From IMG/VR virus record IMGVR_UViG_3300037420_000418, positions 1 to 39,998 of that record: a stretch of 39,998 bases of DNA; one strand, given 5' to 3'. Source of the stretch: a virus. Its lineage: Duplodnaviria > Caudoviricetes. A model generated the notes under the pieces. It was not told where the DNA came from, ran no database searches, and was given only the letters and a program-made list of their open reading frames with translations. Shown here piece by piece: positions 8,671-39,790 of this stretch. Positions within the stretch are counted from its first letter, which is position 1, and each line of letters opens with the position of its first letter. Made by a program: the position numbers and the translations under genes.

Positions 8671-9035
8671 CAAGCCAGCTCTTAATCCAAGCGAAGGATC
8701 GAATTAAAGATCCTGAAAACTGGACAAAATACGCCTACCAAAGAACTATCCAAAAGGGAATTTTCTTCAAGAAGGAAATCGTTTCCTATTGCGCGTATGG
8801 GGCAGTTCCGCTGCATTGCAACGTCGAACAGAGAGCACGCGCTTTAAACATTTTAGATCAAGCGGCACAAGAGTTTGGTTTTTCTAGCGCCCTGACACTG
8901 AACGATGACGCTGCAACAAAGCACGCACTGGTTCTCATGATGTTTGATCGTGCTATTGAAATCGCGCAGGAGAAAGAACTAATTCAGTTCAATATCCAGA
9001 CCATGAAAGAAAAGAAGGAGCTAGTCTCCGTCTGA
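8664..9035 (+). CDS. conserved phage protein (DUF6197-like)
   Basis: W..., YCAYGA, LND...HALVLMMFDRAI pattern. Confidence 0.6.
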   Translation: MLASQLLIQAKDRIKDPENWTKYAYQRTIQKGIFFKKEIVSYCAYGAVPLHCNVEQRARALNILDQAAQEFGFSSALTLNDDAATKHALVLMMFDRAIEIAQEKELIQFNIQTMKEKKELVSV

Positions 9036-10063
9036 TGTTGTCCCGAGGCGAATTGTTTGCCAAGCTTGGATTGATTCAAGTTGTCGAACGTATAACTGGA
9101 AGGGCGTATGCCGAAATCGAAGAGCAAATCTGGCGACTCGATCTTGAAAACTCGCCCCATGGAGAGCCCTGGCATACGTCCTTCCACGCCTCGTCCTTTC
9201 CAGGCGATGACGAACTGGCGTGTGGCCGTAAGGCCGTCTACGGATTGCTTAACCTGCCCACCCCTGCGCCTACGGGTAGGTTCCTTCGTTCCGTAGCAGA
9301 TTCAGGCAAGGCAATCGAAGATGAACTAGTCACTAGATGGGACAAGGCAGGCTATCTGCTATCCGCTAGTGTCGATGCTGAAGTACAGACTGGCTTTGTC
9401 GATGAAGAACACTGGTTGACGGGCAACTGTGATGCCATAGTCTTGCCAAATCACTGGCGGCGTCCACATGTGGTTGAGGTTAAAAGTAAATCTCAAACCA
9501 AAATTGATGAAATGAAGTCGGGCCAACGTGGTCCTGATCCAAAGCATCGCCTTCAGTGTCTCACTTATGTAAGTTTTGCCCACGAACAGCATCCGTGGAA
9601 GAGCGCTCAGGTGTGTCGTGAAACTTGGCGCATACCAAATGATGGTGTTTGTTTAATTCACAACTCTTCTGATTGTCTCACAGTAATTGATTTGGAGCCC
9701 TGCGAATCTGGCTCCATTTTTTATGTATCTAGAGACGATCCATCACAGACACATGAATTCTTCTTCAAGCGTGAGCCTGATTTTCTAGAACAGGGCCGCG
9801 CTAAGATTAAGGAGTGGAAAGAATCTTTTGAGGCAGGGCTATTACCCGACCGTCCGCGCCACGAGGATGGGAAACTCGTCGGATGGTCGGAAGAGCCGTG
9901 TAAGTGGTGCCCCTTAAAGAAAGAAGTCTGCAAGAAAGACTGGCAGGATAAGATAATTACAATAGAACAGAGCCATGCTGTTGAGTTCGTCAAGTCCATT
10001 AGGCCGTACTACGAACTTAATAAAACTATAGAGGCGGTGAAGGAACGTTGGGTAGAACATTAA
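9035..10063 (+). CDS. Cas4-like PD-(D/E)XK exonuclease
   Basis: N-terminal Cys (CGRK), GNCD..VEVKS, QCLTY, C-terminal CKWC..C. Confidence 0.8.
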   Translation: MLSRGELFAKLGLIQVVERITGRAYAEIEEQIWRLDLENSPHGEPWHTSFHASSFPGDDELACGRKAVYGLLNLPTPAPTGRFLRSVADSGKAIEDELVTRWDKAGYLLSASVDAEVQTGFVDEEHWLTGNCDAIVLPNHWRRPHVVEVKSKSQTKIDEMKSGQRGPDPKHRLQCLTYVSFAHEQHPWKSAQVCRETWRIPNDGVCLIHNSSDCLTVIDLEPCESGSIFYVSRDDPSQTHEFFFKREPDFLEQGRAKIKEWKESFEAGLLPDRPRHEDGKLVGWSEEPCKWCPLKKEVCKKDWQDKIITIEQSHAVEFVKSIRPYYELNKTIEAVKERWVEH

Positions 10064-28483: not shown

Positions 28484-28966
28484 TTACTCATAAGAAATCA
28501 CATAGAATCTCTCATCAAAGTACGGTTCGATTACGGGCTTAACTTGCTCCCATGAAAGTTGGCCGTTCCCGCACCCGGGCCGAGGAACGACAACAGTGTG
28601 ATCACTCTCATAAGTGCTGTCAACACTATCAAGAAAGTGAACAAGCTCTTTGGCGCTGCGTTCGATCAGCTTCAGATCGGCTGGCCTCATCCAATGATGC
28701 TTGACCGGGAACGACAGTAGATCGAAGGCTAAGTGGCGGGTCTTACCACCGGGTGCAGCCTCAGTCCATCCTAGTTCATGTACGTGGTTGCCGTAGGTCG
28801 TTAGAAGTTCGCCAAGGGTTAGGTCAATACCTGGGTACCGGACGACAGCCTCCCTGGCGCACCCTCTACCCATGACCGCACGCCCGTTCTTCTTCACGAA
28901 ACCGTTGGTAGTAATACACCTAAGGTCAGCTTTAAAATCCCATAGGTCGCCTTTAACTTCATTCAT
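28484..28966 (-). CDS. macrodomain (Appr-1-p/DarG-Poa1-like) protein
   Basis: KGDLW..TTN..VMGRGCA..FPVKHHW..PRPGCGNGQLSW. Confidence 0.85.
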   Translation of the reverse strand: MNEVKGDLWDFKADLRCITTNGFVKKNGRAVMGRGCAREAVVRYPGIDLTLGELLTTYGNHVHELGWTEAAPGGKTRHLAFDLLSFPVKHHWMRPADLKLIERSAKELVHFLDSVDSTYESDHTVVVPRPGCGNGQLSWEQVKPVIEPYFDERFYVISYE

Positions 28967-29803: not shown

Positions 29804-30039
29804 AGTTTCTCCAGTTCCGAGAGGAGGGCGAGAATTGGTGCCTTGTATCGTTGGTTATTTACACCCCCGATGGTGTGAGAGTACATGCGCTCATGGTCGA
29901 GAGAAGTATTTCTATCGACCAGTGTAGTCACCCAAACATGATTAAGATTAGAGTGTCTGCGAATCACCTTGACAGTGACACCTTTATATCTAAAAATTTG
30001 ATTACTAATATCATAAGGTGAATCTCTTAGGTCTGACAT
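29800..30039 (-). CDS. hypothetical protein
   Basis: ATG 5 nt after tRNA 3' end. Confidence 0.55.
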   Translation of the reverse strand: MSDLRDSPYDISNQIFRYKGVTVKVIRRHSNLNHVWVTTLVDRNTSLDHERMYSHTIGGVNNQRYKAPILALLSELEKL

Positions 30040-30044
30040 CTAAA

Positions 30045-30131
30045 TGCCCCCGGTAGGGATCGAACCTACACGCCCGGGGAAGGGCACTGGATTTTGAATC
30101 CAGCGTGTCTACCGTGTTCCACCACAGGGGC
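30045..30131 (-). tRNA. tRNA-Leu(CAA)
   Basis: CTGGA-TTCAAAA-TCCAG anticodon arm; type II cloverleaf. Confidence 0.95.
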
Positions 30132-30610: not shown

Positions 30611-30805
30611 TTATATTTCTTCCAGGTCGTGATCGTGGATTTCTACAACAGTGACACCCTCATGAGGTACGTCAAGCTTCAGCTTTAAGTATCCGTCGTC
30701 ATCGCACTGTGATAGCACGGTTGCAGTAGACCCACGCAGAATCTCAGCTATTGTGTCAGCATAAACCGCGTCGGGTGTGATACGAACTCGCGTGTTAGTT
30801 TCCAT
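30611..30805 (-). CDS. small SH3-like hypothetical protein
   Basis: TRVRI..GSTATV..LKLD..DLEEI; ATG 2 nt after tRNA. Confidence 0.6.
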   Translation of the reverse strand: METNTRVRITPDAVYADTIAEILRGSTATVLSQCDDDGYLKLKLDVPHEGVTVVEIHDHDLEEI

Positions 30806-30807
30806 AG

Positions 30808-30891
30808 TGCCGCCGGAGGGAATCGAACCCCCACTCCGTAAAGGAACATGATCCTAAATCATGCGTGTCTACCTAGTTCCACCACGGCGGC
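30808..30891 (-). tRNA. tRNA-Leu(TAG)
   Basis: CATGA-TTTAGGA-TCATG anticodon arm; type II cloverleaf. Confidence 0.95.
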
Positions 30892-30894
30892 GAG

Positions 30895-31047
30895 ATTTGC
30901 GGGGCGGTATTTGATAGTTGTGCACTATAAATACATTCCATGAATCACTTCCCGCTAAGGAAGATCGCCGCTAAGCGATCAGCGATTCACTTTCTATCCG
31001 CAGGGTTTCCTGCACTTTTTGTTATCCCTGTTTGTCGTCCCGCAAAT
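30895..31047 (-). ncRNA. structured ncRNA unit 1 (153 nt)
   Basis: terminal inverted repeat ATTTGCGGG/CCCGCAAAT; internal multibranch with two UAGC-loop hairpins; strand inferred from flanking tRNAs and internal G-U pairs. Confidence 0.6.
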
Positions 31048-31049
31048 TA

Positions 31050-31203
31050 TTTCTGGCGGCTGGATCTGAGAATCCGACCTCACTTCTCCTACCACTTCAG
31101 ACAGAGGCTACCTCGCTAGAGGTTTAGGGAGCTACCCTTTCGCTTGCCCTTTCGATAAACCGGCCTAAGGGTCGGTCCCGTACCGGCTGTATACCGCCAG
31201 AAA
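31050..31203 (-). ncRNA. structured ncRNA unit 2 (154 nt)
   Basis: perfect 10-bp terminal stem TTTCTGGCGG/CCGCCAGAAA; internal UAGC-loop hairpins. Confidence 0.6.
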
Positions 31204-31211
31204 GATTAAGT

Positions 31212-31343
31212 TGTGGCGCGAGGTAGGCTATACCTATTATTTTACCGTAGTAAATTTTCTACCGACTTTCCTCGCTCTACAAAATGCTAGGGCCGGAGCC
31301 TATCCCGGCGCGACATATGTAGGGGGAAGCGTGTCGTGCCACA
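31212..31343 (-). ncRNA. structured ncRNA unit 3 (132 nt)
   Basis: terminal stem TGTGGCACGA/TCGCGCCACA; C(UACG)G tetraloop hairpin on - strand. Confidence 0.6.
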
Positions 31344-31360
31344 TCTAGTTAACATAAAAG

Positions 31361-31545
31361 TTGTGGCGCGTGTGATACTTGGCTAGCACGTTCTCACAAT
31401 TTAGGTTTCATTTGGCCCAGGCCATCGGGGACGATCCACCCCTCCGCACCCTGCTAGGCGTAGCAGGCCGGGTTGCACCTTTACCGCTCTCCGTAGCGAC
31501 CCCCATTTTATAGGGTGCCGACCCCCACGGTGCGTCGTGCCACAA
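31361..31545 (-). ncRNA. structured ncRNA unit 4 (185 nt)
   Basis: same terminal stem sequence as unit 3, different interior with GC-rich hairpins. Confidence 0.6.
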
Positions 31546-31547
31546 AT

Positions 31548-31562
31548 TATTCAGTTTTCAAG
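31548..31562 (-). promoter_or_regulatory. boxA-like antitermination/processing motif
   Basis: CTTGAAAACTGAATA on - strand, after a small hairpin. Confidence 0.4.
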
Positions 31563-31618
31563 TTACGGACCCCAAAATTTTCGGGGGGAGAAAATTGTTC
31601 TAGCACTATGATCATAGA

Positions 31619-31729
31619 TAGAGAACCAAACCCGCTCTTTTATTGTGCTACTGTTGTCCGTTCGCCAATTTAGGCATCCGATCACTCGTTAGAGTTTTCA
31701 GATTTTATGTTCGCCGATTTGGTTCTCTA
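31619..31729 (-). ncRNA. structured ncRNA unit 5 (111 nt)
   Basis: perfect 12-bp terminal stem TAGAGAACCAAA/TTTGGTTCTCTA. Confidence 0.55.
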
Positions 31730-31730
31730 G

Positions 31731-31852
31731 CGCCGCTCTGGGAATCGAACCCAGATCATATGAAAGAGCTTAGCTCGTTTACACTAGCCGCGCGTATCTA
31801 GGAGGGACGAGCAGCCTATGACACTCTTTCTGATAGCTCAACCTGAGACGGC
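31731..31852 (-). ncRNA. tRNA-like RNA with long rod replacing the anticodon arm (122 nt)
   Basis: T arm CTGGG-TTCGATT-CCCAG; bulged acceptor GCCGTCT/AGCGGC; nested helices ATCA/TGAT, GAAAGAG/CTCTTTC, GCTCGT/ACGAGC, CTAG/CTAG. Confidence 0.7.
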
Positions 31853-33140: not shown

Positions 33141-33350
33141 CTAGCTCAGTGGTGTAGCGGCAAACGGATCCATGTAGACCGTGTTGCCCGGACGGTTTTT
33201 CCCGTCGATAGATTCAAACCCAATACTTGATTCAGAGTCAACCTTCCAAACCCTCACAAAACTACCGGCTGGGAAGGCAATTTCATTGCGGCGACTGGAC
33301 ATAATATCTACTTTGGTGCGATAGATTTTTCCTACTTTATAATAACTCAT
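33141..33350 (-). CDS. small SH3-like hypothetical protein
   Basis: YKVGKIYR..FPAGSFVRV; GGGAG SD. Confidence 0.6.
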   Translation of the reverse strand: MSYYKVGKIYRTKVDIMSSRRNEIAFPAGSFVRVWKVDSESSIGFESIDGKNRPGNTVYMDPFAATPLS

Positions 33351-33586
33351 AGAAGCTCCCAGTATTCTACTGTTCTACTAAGCCTCGGCGCAGGAATCCA
33401 CTCTTTCCACTCTTCTTCATTAGTATTTTTAGTATTGAGAGGTATGGCGTCAAACGAAGTATCTTGATATAGATGAGCAACTCTATAGCATTTTTCTGCC
33501 TTAAATCTACCTTGTAGGCCGGTATATGATTGGGTCGCTCTAAGAATGGAACCATTTTTAACGAGCTTAATTTCTTCTTCTGTCAT
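33347..33586 (-). CDS. small hypothetical protein
   Basis: GSILRA..FKAEKCYRV..AIPL; ATG 2 nt after tRNA. Confidence 0.6.
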   Translation of the reverse strand: MTEEEIKLVKNGSILRATQSYTGLQGRFKAEKCYRVAHLYQDTSFDAIPLNTKNTNEEEWKEWIPAPRLSRTVEYWELL

Positions 33587-33588
33587 AA

Positions 33589-33746
33589 TGCACGAGGCGG
33601 GGATCGAACCCGCAAGGCCAACGATGGATTCTTCAAATTCCTCCCCGCGAAGGGATGAAATTTTCTAGGCCGGTACCAAACGGTCTGCGAATCCAGGGCC
33701 ACTAGGGTTTGAGCCTAGCGTGTTTACCGGATTTCACCACTCGTGC
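33589..33746 (-). tRNA. tRNA-Leu(CAA) with 88-nt variable region (158 nt total)
   Basis: acceptor GCACGAG/CTCGTGC+A, Leu-type D arm, CTAGG-CTCAAAC-CCTAG, T arm GCGGG-TTCGATC-CCCGC; variable region 33614-33701. Confidence 0.85.
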
Positions 33747-33760
33747 AAGTTTAGTTGATT

Positions 33761-33988
33761 TTACAAAAGATCAACGCCGTTTCTTTTTAGATTCTCGACT
33801 TTGTTGAGTGCATCAACTATTCTTTCTGCTACCTCTGGCGATGCATATGCAACCATACCGCCAGATTCCTCATCGACAATGCCGACAAAGTTTTTCACTG
33901 GCTGGGGTGGAGAATCAAGATAAGTTACTTTGCCATTGAGATAGATTCCGTAAGCATCATTGACCCACCAGCGATCTTTTTCTGCCAT
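33761..33988 (-). CDS. hypothetical protein
   Basis: ORF ending VAERIVDALN, a common phage small-protein pattern. Confidence 0.65.
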   Translation of the reverse strand: MAEKDRWWVNDAYGIYLNGKVTYLDSPPQPVKNFVGIVDEESGGMVAYASPEVAERIVDALNKVENLKRNGVDLL

Positions 33989-34180
33989 GGTAATTTTCTC
34001 TTACGTTATATACCGAAGTCTGAGGTTGAACTTACTTATCGCCCTACATTCCCCACATGAGGAATGCACATAGCTTTTCTACGAATTCCCTGAACTCGTA
34101 CCAAGCTTGCTTCAAAGTATGTTCGCCTCCATTAGATTATGTTATGAAACAAGACAGGGTAGATAAGGATTACTCCCTAC

Positions 34181-34426
34181 CTACCCTGTCTTGTGATAGC
34201 CCGTCCCATCGTTTGAGACTTCTTCTCGAAGCCCACGATCCACAATGGGAAGCCCAGCTTGCGCGACAAGTATACCAAGGTCTGTATACTTTTGATCTTT
34301 CGGCCAAAAGGCAAACCCATACTCACCGCTATTAAGTTGAAAGAGAAGAATTGCATTAACAATCTCTTCTCCGACAACTCCTGCTAGGGCTTTCTCGATG
34401 AGGGTCGATAGCTCTTCATCCGCCAT
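34181..34426 (-). CDS. hypothetical protein
   Basis: AAGGGG SD. Confidence 0.6.
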   Translation of the reverse strand: MADEELSTLIEKALAGVVGEEIVNAILLFQLNSGEYGFAFWPKDQKYTDLGILVAQAGLPIVDRGLREEVSNDGTGYHKTG

Positions 34427-37648: not shown

Positions 37649-38362
37649 TTACTCCAGTCCAGCCTCACTTAGCTCACACTGGATGATGTTGTTAGCTTCG
37701 ACGTTCATATAGATCATGCCCGGAACCTTGTCCCCGGCAAGCTGCTTGCGAACCCCGGTCAGCAGATGACTACCAACGTGCCCCATTACATCAATAACGG
37801 AGCGCCGGGTACAAGGATCTTCCTGAGCGTCCTCATCGGAGTACAGCGTCTTCTCAAACAGACGCCATTCCTCCGGGTCCTTCGGGTTGACCGAGTAAAT
37901 GACGATCTTCTCGCCACCAATCCGGGCATCCCAATAGCGAGGAATGTGGAAGCGGTTAGCCTTCACGGCCTTGGCAATTTCCGTCCGCGCCGCCATTGAA
38001 TCGACGCCGGAGACGACTAGCCCCATAAGCTGCGTCGAGTCGGTAACACGCTCATTCTTCTCTTCAACTTCAGAGATAGTGAAAGAACTAACCGCCTCGC
38101 TCAAAGCATGAACCTTCGGGTAACCCAGCTTATCCAGAGGAAAGAACTGGTTGGGAAGGTTATGAGCCTCGACAGAGTCATCGTCAAAGACGGTGATCCG
38201 GCCGATGCCAAGCTTGCCAGCCATGACAGTGAACAGAGAACCGATTCCACCACCACCGATCACTGTCAGCTTGGCATCAATCGAAGTAGGATCGAACCAA
38301 TCCCGCTGGCGGGTGAAGTCGATGGTCCCATTGCGTTCTAGTTCTAGAACACGAGGATTCAT
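37649..38362 (-). CDS. ThiF/MoeB/E1-family adenylyltransferase
   Basis: VIGGGGIGS, DDDSVEAHNLPNQ, KV, GVDSMAAR, DARIG, Cys in EDPC. Confidence 0.92.
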   Translation of the reverse strand: MNPRVLELERNGTIDFTRQRDWFDPTSIDAKLTVIGGGGIGSLFTVMAGKLGIGRITVFDDDSVEAHNLPNQFFPLDKLGYPKVHALSEAVSSFTISEVEEKNERVTDSTQLMGLVVSGVDSMAARTEIAKAVKANRFHIPRYWDARIGGEKIVIYSVNPKDPEEWRLFEKTLYSDEDAQEDPCTRRSVIDVMGHVGSHLLTGVRKQLAGDKVPGMIYMNVEANNIIQCELSEAGLE

Positions 38363-38388
38363 GGAATCACTTCCTTTATTTGTTGTTG

Positions 38389-38577
38389 TTAAGTAAGCTC
38401 TTTAAGCCTTGCCGGGTCAAGATAAAACTCATCCTCATATTGGTCGGGACGAGGATTCAGAAGCTTATAGTTATAGCCATCGTCACATACGACGGCTTGA
38501 CCTTTTACGCCGTAATAAACACCGTCTTCGGGTTCCTCGGCACCGTCTTCAATAAGCACGTAGAATTTTCTACTCAT
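38389..38577 (-). CDS. small hypothetical protein
   Basis: ORF between JAB and ThiF genes. Confidence 0.55.
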   Translation of the reverse strand: MSRKFYVLIEDGAEEPEDGVYYGVKGQAVVCDDGYNYKLLNPRPDQYEDEFYLDPARLKELT

Positions 38578-38610
38578 AACATATTATTTAGTTTGATTAT
38601 AAATACTCTT

Positions 38611-38636
38611 CTCTCCACCGCCGAAACGATGGAGAG
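38611..38636 (-). other. stable RNA hairpin just 3' of JAB gene
   Basis: CTCTCCATCG-TTTCGG-CGGTGGAGAG; no U tract. Confidence 0.6.
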
Positions 38637-38644
38637 TAGACTAC

Positions 38645-39790
38645 TTACATCGCACCCATCATCATGGGGAATGCTTCGAGCACTGCCTTGCGCTCTTCTT
38701 CACTGAGCGTGCGGCGCTTCTTAATGGCTTCCTTTTCCTCATTCAGAAGCTTATCCCAAACAGACTTGGTGATATCTTCCAGAAGGATCAGTTCAGAATC
38801 TTCGACAATCAGTGAGATATCGAAGAACGAAGCGTAGCCAGCGCTTTCGTCAAAGCAACGAAACCAAGTTGCTTCAAAGAAATCACCGGAATCCTCGGCC
38901 TCGTTGTCGGTGTCTTTTCCCCCGTTACTCCCTCGCCGCTTAGTGCCGGTTGAGGAGTTCTTGGACCCTTTGCTCCCGTTCTTCGAGCTTGGCCCGGAAG
39001 TAGTCGTCTTCTTCCCCCCAGACCAGACCCATTTTGGGGACTGCACCTTCTCTTCGTACTCAACCTTAGCCTCTTCCTTGATACCATTCTGGATAGCAAG
39101 GGTAGCTTCGGTGAGTTCCTTATTTACATCCTTGACGGCATCCTTACGAGCTTTCTTGAGTTCTTCAAGACGCTCCTTCAGATCCTTAGTGACATTATCA
39201 AGCTCTTCTTCAAGCTTGGTAATCTCTGCGTCGTAGGGAGCCTCAATACTCTCGCTCTTGGCGATAATATTGATCAGCCCCGGGTGAGGGAGGATTTCGA
39301 GAGACGCGCTCTCGAAAGTAACAGAGTGTCCCTCTTCATCCAGAAGCGGACAAATGTTCCTATCCAGACCCTTGAAGACGTCAAGCCGGTGCTTAACCTC
39401 ATTGCGGTTGTTATACACCGACGAGAACATCCACGGAACCGAGTAGCCCATGCGCTCGATGAAGTCCTTATCCGTACCGGACCAGAACGTACTCATCGCG
39501 CCATGTGAGTGCCAAGAGTAGACGCCGTACTCAGCCGCCGTCCAACCAGCACCGCCATTCTCGACAGGGGTGTACAGCCATTCAAGATACTTAGCGAATG
39601 CCTGATCATCCCAATCGACCGAGCCGGAGGAAACTTCCTGCTCCAGCAGCCGCATATGGCGAACCACATTGGCTCCGTCTTCGAGAGTCTCGATGACGCC
39701 AAAGCCGCCAATCTCATTTGGGGAAGCCTCATGCACCCAGGCTTTAATCCGAGTGTAATCCTCTTCCTCAATAAAGAGAATAGGTGTCAA
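38645..39790 (-). CDS. JAB/MPN-domain metalloprotease-like protein with coiled-coil extension
   Basis: NEIGGFG (Glu), WHSH..FWSGTD (HxH..S..D); TTG start with AGGAG SD. Confidence 0.85.
   Translation of the reverse strand: MTPILFIEEEDYTRIKAWVHEASPNEIGGFGVIETLEDGANVVRHMRLLEQEVSSGSVDWDDQAFAKYLEWLYTPVENGGAGWTAAEYGVYSWHSHGAMSTFWSGTDKDFIERMGYSVPWMFSSVYNNRNEVKHRLDVFKGLDRNICPLLDEEGHSVTFESASLEILPHPGLINIIAKSESIEAPYDAEITKLEEELDNVTKDLKERLEELKKARKDAVKDVNKELTEATLAIQNGIKEEAKVEYEEKVQSPKWVWSGGKKTTTSGPSSKNGSKGSKNSSTGTKRRGSNGGKDTDNEAEDSGDFFEATWFRCFDESAGYASFFDISLIVEDSELILLEDITKSVWDKLLNEEKEAIKKRRTLSEEERKAVLEAFPMMMGAM

Follow-up and report, generated by a model that had tools for sequence, protein, structure and literature searches.

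A phage leucine tRNA gene with an 88-nucleotide variable region

In bacteria, leucine identity resides in A73, the A15-U48 pair, G18G19, A20a and contacts between the D and T arms, and the sequence and fold of the variable arm are dispensable (PMC9976931, as far as its accessible text goes). Large folded RNAs have been attached to the loop at the tip of this arm (V-loop) in class II tRNAs. According to the accessible part of PMC5397188, a Spinach RNA of ~100 nt in the V-loop of tRNA-Tyr gave a stable product whose charging efficiency was down only 2.7-fold and which supported translation and growth; a fusion to tRNA-Leu's V-loop gave a signal in cells, and fusions to either the D- or the T-loop were unstable. 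The 183-nt fusion made in that study is said there to exceed naturally existing tRNA. Long variable arms occur naturally in the allo-tRNAs and tRNA-Sec, which are found in soil metagenomes and phages and have acceptor branches of the 8/4 or 9/3 type with G73 or U73 (PMC5389517, partial text). Our search of a literature made up mostly of open-access papers found no natural tRNA with an arm of the size described below and no CRISPR repeat in a tRNA.

The DNA analysed here (the window, 39,998 nt) is a 40-kb piece of an uncultured soil tailed phage and encodes DnaE, a RecA-like protein, terminase, portal, a ClpP-like protease and a peptidoglycan-binding protein. It contains two genes for tRNA-Leu(CAA), one of normal length and one in which the variable region measures 88 nt (Table 1).

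The leucine tRNA gene and its variable arm

The tRNA profile of Rfam (RF00005) covers the giant-arm gene end to end, from 33746 to 33589 on the minus strand (a strand that the preliminary description left unstated), with 47.9 bits against a gathering threshold of 29 and a single long insert. ARAGORN called the other six tRNA genes of the window and missed this one; at a low threshold and with introns allowed it returned only noise in the window. Watson-Crick pairing is complete in the canonical stems, with 20 of 20 pairs (acceptor 7/7, D 3/3, anticodon 5/5, T 5/5). A preliminary description of this DNA had recognised a tRNA-Leu(CAA) with four well-paired arms and discriminator A, and a normal copy of the gene elsewhere; both identifications hold. 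The anticodon is at 33711-33709, flanked by U33 and a purine at position 37. The bacterial LeuRS identity set is complete (A73, A15-U48, G18G19, A20a, G19-C56 and U54-A58, compared with the accessible text of PMC9976931). The combination of C32 and C38 in the anticodon loop is common to the normal-length phage tRNA-Leu(CAA) genes of two viral contigs (L248 and L250), and we therefore rejected C38 as a sign of decay.

Table 1. Coordinates of the giant-arm gene, its parts and related features. Positions refer to the window unless another record is named.
Feature	Position	Strand	Description	Evidence
tRNA-Leu(CAA) gene	33589..33746	minus	158 nt, CCA not encoded	Rfam RF00005, cloverleaf, identical contigs
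Acceptor stem, 5' strand	33740..33746	minus	7/7 pairs with 33590-33596; discriminator A73 at 33589	
D arm	33720..33737	minus	class II type, 3 bp, A14, A15, G18G19, A20a	sequence; identity elements per PMC9976931 (partial text)
Anticodon arm	33702..33718	minus	5 bp, 7-nt loop C32-U33-CAA-A37-C38	sequence
Variable region	33614..33701	minus	88 nt: U44, 4-bp basal stem (33700-33697/33619-33616), two unpaired bases ending in U48	
Insert at arm tip	33620..33696	minus	77 nt, 7-bp closing stem (33695-33689/33631-33625), predicted three-way junction	
Hairpin A	33667..33688	minus	weak, several registers, pair probabilities 0.2-0.6	
Hairpin B	33635..33663	minus	12 bp, one bulge, two G-U pairs, 4-nt loop, pair probabilities 0.66-0.97	
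Type III CRISPR-repeat-like stretch	33631..33661	plus (crRNA sense)	31 nt	Rfam CRISPR-DR21, arrays, background test
T arm	33597..33613	minus	5 bp, canonical loop	sequence; Rfam alignment
Normal tRNA-Leu(CAA), second copy	30045..30131	minus	87 nt	ARAGORN, Rfam
Downstream orphan ORF	33347..33586	minus	79 aa, ATG 2 nt after A73, no Shine-Dalgarno between	
Upstream ORF	33761..33988	minus	75 aa, stops 14 nt short of the tRNA, probably on one transcript with it	
Giant-arm gene L249 (IMG/VR 3300027908_000040)	L249 2001-2094; G035:C1:15739-15864		126 nt, 57-nt arm, UUC (Glu) anticodon	

The length of the variable region given in the preliminary description, 88 nt, agrees with the sequence. It falls outside the ordinary size of class II variable arms (about 10-24 nt), contrasts with the 5-16 nt found in 125 matches of the normal type, and contains a branched insert. 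In all other respects the gene resembles the bacterial and phage class II tRNA-Leu(CAA) represented by RF00005, the 30045-30131 copy, L248 and L250: it shares their 7/3/5/5 stems, invariant bases, leucine identity and anticodon loop. The arm starts with the same 1-nt/4-bp/2-nt geometry as in the 30045-30131 copy and L250. The anticodon arm is neither replaced nor expanded, keeping its 5-bp stem and 7-nt loop; only the variable arm has extra sequence. Because the arm-base geometry and the C32/C38 loop also occur in ordinary phage tRNA-Leu(CAA), the scaffold is of the normal tRNA-Leu type with a cargo at the arm loop. A tRNA scaffold bearing an extra domain, as first proposed, is thus what the intact cloverleaf and the 77-nt insert at the arm tip amount to.

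The predicted fold of the arm begins with the basal GGCC/GGCC stem (pair probability about 1), followed by a 1x5 internal loop and the 7-bp closing stem (0.92-1.0), beyond which lie hairpins A and B. The same two stems and two hairpins had been named in the preliminary description and are indeed predicted; the degree of structure it implied is not borne out, hairpin A being weak and the folding energy of the arm ordinary (z -0.72; 210 of 1000 shuffles as good). Hairpin A pairs better on the opposite strand, and the reverse complement of the arm has a z of -2.1; the insert alone has a z of -0.94. The best 29-nt window is equalled by 23% of 300 shuffles. The sole feature of the arm above chance is the closing stem: seven Watson-Crick pairs at this place arose in 0.49% of 20,000 shuffles, or in 7.5% if G-U pairs are allowed. 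This rarity suggests either that selection has acted on the fold or that the unit was folded before its capture.

For the whole RNA, the unconstrained minimum-energy fold is predicted to be a misfold that uses the insert and lies 5.5-7 kcal/mol below the cloverleaf. The gap between cloverleaf and misfold is 5.5 kcal/mol with the real insert and 4.6 +/- 2.5 kcal/mol with shuffled inserts. Two normal leucine tRNAs have predicted gaps of 3.7 kcal/mol (the 30045-30131 CAA copy) and 0.6 kcal/mol.

Genomic setting and search for relatives

The same DNA was found in soil and rhizosphere runs, and contigs carrying the same terminase reach 99.9 kb. Among phages with long contigs, the nearest (100-106 kb) have terminases 74% and 64% identical to that of the window. 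There is no close cultured relative: the best terminase match is 23% identical (Microcystis phage) and the best DnaE matches 31-33%. The nearest Atlas clusters of the lysin-like protein are commonest in Actinomycetota, the phylum being known for only 10 and 3 of their members.

Seven tRNA genes, of which six are on the minus strand, lie between 27.9 and 33.8 kb in alternation with small orphan ORFs. In three of the six (at 33586-33589, 30805-30808 and 30039-30045) an ATG comes 2-5 nt behind position 73 and lacks a Shine-Dalgarno sequence, an arrangement from which tRNA release may make near-leaderless mRNAs. Protein searches with the 79-aa ORF downstream of the giant-arm gene returned only the query itself, and no protein family was found for the 75-aa ORF upstream. 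Scans for promoters and for terminators came close to chance expectation (25 matches against 15.2 expected and 14 against 12.3, respectively). A hairpin at 34149-34194, with 21-nt arms that are 90% complementary, lies upstream of the ORF preceding the tRNA and is a possible terminator or processing site.

The tRNA cluster also includes an 894-nt stretch (30900-31793, minus strand) that contains no ORF of at least 60 aa and is strongly structured (z -4.83; none of 20 shuffles as good). It starts with a 65-nt mini-tRNA (31793-31729) made of an acceptor stem, one hairpin and a T arm, and contains a short motif pair in about three repeats. No credible Rfam match was found up to E 10 and no homologue in viral contigs or 35 virus records; a viral pattern scan with the motif gave one chance match. 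The stretch is a candidate for a large non-coding RNA and may be of greater interest than the giant-arm tRNA itself.

Three further loci in the window deserve mention. ThiF/E1-like and Prok-JAB genes lie close together at 37649-39790 (minus strand), as a ubiquitin-like conjugation module in a phage; a search with the 381-aa JAB protein found no related locus. A 160-aa protein encoded at 28484-28966 (minus strand) has a partial match to the ADP-ribosyl glycohydrolase DarG (E 2.4e-13, below cut-off) and, by this resemblance, possibly counters an ADP-ribosylating defence. A Cas4-like exonuclease (PHROGs), of a kind common in phages, is encoded at 9035-10063 on the plus strand.

Phage genomes were searched for an insert at the same position, as the preliminary description had proposed, and no copy was found. 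With search patterns that were exact and not exhaustive, the insert had no second copy in viral pattern scans, a metagenome scan, BLAST of phages and plasmids, 35 virus records or 401 Chloroflexota genomes. A generic long-arm pattern matched about 520 stretches of viral contigs; the 120 examined contained no relative. Of their matches, 125 are normal tRNAs with a second T loop behind them; another 12, in which the first T loop comes late, are, by eye, expanded anticodon arms or tandem genes. A pattern for hairpin B had one match in viral contigs, a chance occurrence in coding-like DNA, and three geometry patterns yielded true giant arms in 0 of 4, 1 of 8 and 1 of 15 matches, the positive being the same gene (L249) both times. 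No true giant arm was present in 120 of the ~360 matched stretches of metagenome contigs, and BLAST against phages and plasmids produced tRNA bodies or chance matches only. In 34 of 67 terminase-related virus records and the L249 record there were 94 tRNA matches, none longer than 90 nt except L249, and no match to the insert. None of the 401 Chloroflexota genomes contained the giant-arm pattern.

L249 scores 48.6 bits with the Rfam tRNA model and is likewise missed by ARAGORN. It has the Leu-type scaffold, the GGCC/GGCC basal stem and a long folded arm in common with the gene studied here, but its 57-nt arm is unbranched, its anticodon is UUC and it shares no insert sequence. The L249 arm is probably an independent event. 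Since L249 is one more true giant-arm gene on the same type of scaffold, giant arms on Leu scaffolds are rare but recurring. L249 adjoins a transposase-like ORF and a small HTH-like ORF (both named by eye).

Viral contigs also contain Leu-scaffold look-alikes with expanded anticodon arms (L021, L024, L029, L033, L037, L049, L051 and L088), of which L024, L029, L037, L049 and L051 form one near-identical family. In metagenome contigs, L180 is a tRNA-Leu(CAG) gene with an internal tandem duplication from the anticodon to the T loop, possibly an assembly or integration scar.

Possible roles of the insert

We favour, tentatively, the reading that the gene encodes a chargeable, unspliced phage tRNA-Leu(CAA) that reads UUG and carries the 77-nt insert as tolerated cargo. 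The RNA would be cut, without splicing, from a long transcript by RNase P and a 3' nuclease, and the host would add CCA, as we infer from the fact that none of the seven tRNA genes in the window encodes it. Host LeuRS would charge the RNA with leucine, because bacterial leucine identity consists of A73, A15-U48, G18G19 and A20a and not of the arm. The ribosome would accept the giant-arm tRNA, probably with lowered efficiency, and read UUG codons, the insert pointing away from the tRNA core. Once it is released, the next ORF would have a leader of 2 nt. This lineage probably acquired the insert once, and no function need be assumed for it; a permissive arm tip and the presence of a second CAA gene would account for its being tolerated.

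Codon usage bears on this reading in both directions. UUG accounts for 96 of 526 leucine codons (18%) in the 24 larger (core) genes, so that a second CAA tRNA can add dose for them. The preliminary description had called the giant-arm copy redundant for decoding; a second CAA copy does exist, but given this use of UUG the claim was overstated. UUG is found in only 3 of 173 leucine codons in the 27 small minus-strand ORFs, which counts against a decoding role. So does the marginal activity that is all V-Spinach tRNAs showed according to the accessible part of PMC7590224 (Mukai). The ordinary folding energy of insert and arm and a misfold gap like that of shuffled inserts are as expected of tolerated cargo, and so is the lack of a conserved relative in any search, if the cargo is specific to the lineage; this lack may also be a sampling effect only. 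The rarity of the closing stem and the use of the insert by the minimum-energy misfold count against it.

An unlikely alternative is that the RNA is a chargeable, stable carrier in which the insert serves as a protein-binding or decoy domain, for example as bait or steric shield against host tRNA-cutting nucleases, with decoding secondary or absent. The closing stem and the predicted three-way junction would suit such a domain, and the second CAA gene would free the giant-arm copy for it. L249 provides another Leu-type gene with a giant arm on the same GGCC/GGCC base, though with no insert sequence in common. Hairpin B has UUC at its loop, the sequence that Schlafen nucleases linked to type III systems cleave in the loops of tRNAs (PMC13462974, accessible text); nothing in the window ties the insert to these enzymes. 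The aptamer or decoy domain envisaged in the preliminary description has so far gained no support: no homologue, covariation or other sign of conservation was found, the folding energy of the arm is unremarkable, and hairpin A is only weakly paired. A fully canonical anticodon arm sets the gene apart from the expanded-anticodon look-alikes in viral contigs, and, from the sequence, such an arm with full leucine identity appears to fit a working tRNA better than a non-decoding decoy.

It is distinctly unlikely that the gene has no role in translation and is only a processing signal, at which the long minus-strand transcript is cut to release a leaderless mRNA, or a copy whose damage is too recent for decay to have followed. 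The near-leaderless ORFs behind three of the six minus-strand tRNA genes would fit a processing signal, and the predicted misfold 5.5-7 kcal/mol below the cloverleaf would fit damage, but the normal CAA copy is predicted to misfold as well. All covering contigs are identical and give no information on the age of the insert, which is compatible with recent damage. tRNA processing enzymes need neither an anticodon arm nor leucine identity, and both are perfect here; this argues against the gene being only a signal or a decaying copy.

Hairpin B also contains a stretch of 31 nt resembling a type III CRISPR repeat, which the preliminary description had missed. It is solitary in the window and overlaps no ORF of at least 60 aa. 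Rfam CRISPR-DR21 (17.3 bits, E 5.8) and CRISPR-DR57 (14.1 bits, E 7) both match at 33628-33662, over their full length but far below gathering (48 bits for DR21). A pattern combining hairpin B with the DR21 consensus found 16 loci among 185,579 genomes (Chloroflexus 7, cyanobacteria 7, clostridia-like 2); 11 are multi-copy arrays, and two have type III-A cas10/csm genes beside them, running antisense to the pattern. From the strand of the cas10/csm genes, read together with the known GAAAC-type 3' handle, it follows that the plus strand of the window corresponds to crRNA sense and the tRNA to an anti-repeat. Measured only against natural repeats that fit the pattern, the phage 31-mer agrees with the best three repeat types in 25/32, 28/37 and 23/29 columns (76-79%); the alignments contain indels, among them the loss of 1 nt from the 8-nt handle. 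A C-to-T difference sets it apart from 16/16 natural repeats and preserves pairing, as G-U, only on the tRNA strand. Allowing two edits, the family pattern matches the window once, at this place, and controls twice in 8.9 million positions (0 in 2.34 million viral, 1 in 0.55 million metagenome and 1 in 6 million simulated positions). The resulting chance estimate of roughly 0.002-0.004 is based on 154 positions and a guessed 50-100 repeat families, and is post hoc and partly circular.

We regard it as quite improbable that the insert is a captured, reversed type III repeat with part of a spacer, and the tRNA a stable, abundant vehicle for an anti-repeat RNA that damps type III immunity. Such an RNA would pair with the repeats of pre-crRNA and block crRNA maturation, or would pose as a self-like target, its 3' flank pairing with the handle of the crRNA. 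The coincidence of two full-length Rfam matches, the arrays and cas10/csm neighbours of the pattern loci, the control counts and the strand-specific C-to-T change speak for it. Besides the low scores and the broken handle, its orientation speaks against it: the transcribed tRNA strand is the complement of the repeat, so that the transcript does not have Cas6 sense, and the plus strand has only a chance-level promoter match (33464-33491), whereas known RNA anti-CRISPRs mimic the repeat itself. No closer repeat was found in 401 Chloroflexota genomes, the window holds no second repeat, and the spacer-like part has no match in the window, phages or plasmids. The arrays belong to Chloroflexus, cyanobacteria and clostridia-like bacteria; the weak host hint is Actinomycetota. 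The identity of 76-79% is below the level at which SRUFinder calls solitary repeat units, namely 90% or more in both identity and coverage against a known repeat (PMC10651486, accessible text). A CRISPR origin of the insert as such, whatever its present role, we consider a possibility on the unlikely side, and the resemblance may be due to chance.

Very improbable is a non-canonical intron, removed by a nuclease and a ligase to leave a tRNA of ~85 nt. The insert does sit exactly at the loop of a normal arm, where clean removal would restore a normal tRNA, and the window shows only ~40 kb of a genome of roughly 100 kb, so that a phage nuclease or ligase could lie outside. However, no splicing endonuclease or RtcB was found among the 59 ORFs scanned, and the virus looks bacterial from its DnaE, RecA-like and peptidoglycan-binding proteins. 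Group I and II introns have a ribozyme core of some hundreds of bases; with 77 nt and no intron or ribozyme family of Rfam matching up to E 10, the insert is neither, as had been argued at the outset. In archaeal bulge-helix-bulge introns, two 3-nt bulges flank a 4-bp helix at the splice sites; here the junction is a 1x5 internal loop beside an unbroken 7-bp helix, and this identity was rejected too.

Other candidate identities were discarded. A miniature inverted-repeat mobile element is contradicted by an inverted repeat of only 7 bp, with no duplicated flank and no second copy in the window. The core consensus of the hammerhead ribozyme is absent from the insert. A duplicated anticodon arm would have only the closing-stem letters in common with the 30045 copy, and no valid loop.

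An assembly artefact, finally, can be dismissed as having a negligible probability, with no point in its favour. Single contigs of four runs (X1, X2, X3 and X4) span the gene without a single difference or gap, and in run X6 a pair of overlapping contigs covers it, likewise identical and gap-free; none contains a joint giving an insert-free form, and the insert duplicates nothing in the window. The arm is not covered in runs X5 and X7. The five covering runs come from five studies; X1-X3 are each a possible source of the window itself, and at least two of the five carry no such flag. The check for an artefact proposed in the preliminary description thus left the arm unchanged.

Comparison with known systems

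The gene is a new variant of class II tRNA-Leu and not a member of any cargo family tested. From allo-tRNAs and tRNA-Sec, with which it shares the long variable arm, it is separated by its 7/5 acceptor branch and A73, and we rejected it as an allo-tRNA (PMC5389517, partial text). Like Racr and the solitary repeat units of PMC10651486 (accessible text), the 31-mer is a single repeat-like unit in non-coding phage DNA with no adjacent array; it differs from Racr in its lower identity, in being antisense on the transcribed strand and in being embedded in a tRNA. The words 'tRNA' and 'antisense' are absent from the main text of that article in its accessible form. A tRNA-borne antisense anti-CRISPR, improbable as it is, would be a kind of RNA counter-defence absent from the literature searched. 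Should the resemblance be real, it would connect phage tRNA genes with RNA-based counter-defence.

With an idle insert, the gene would be a rare curiosity of a kind missed by standard tRNA finders. If the RNA is charged and decodes, then at 158 nt it is almost twice as long as working tRNAs usually are, and it would show phages to be capable of attaching cargo to a tRNA active in translation. The gene has kept a perfect decoding arm, unlike most oversized phage tRNA look-alikes, which makes the favoured reading of a working tRNA directly testable with one synthetic gene. The closest likeness is then to the engineered V-Spinach and other aptamer-tagged tRNAs (PMC5397188 and PMC7590224, partial texts), which have a large folded RNA at the same place, the tip of a class II V-loop, and keep charging and decoding. 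By analogy, the giant-arm tRNA would work as they do and would be their natural counterpart; it differs from them in being natural and phage-encoded.
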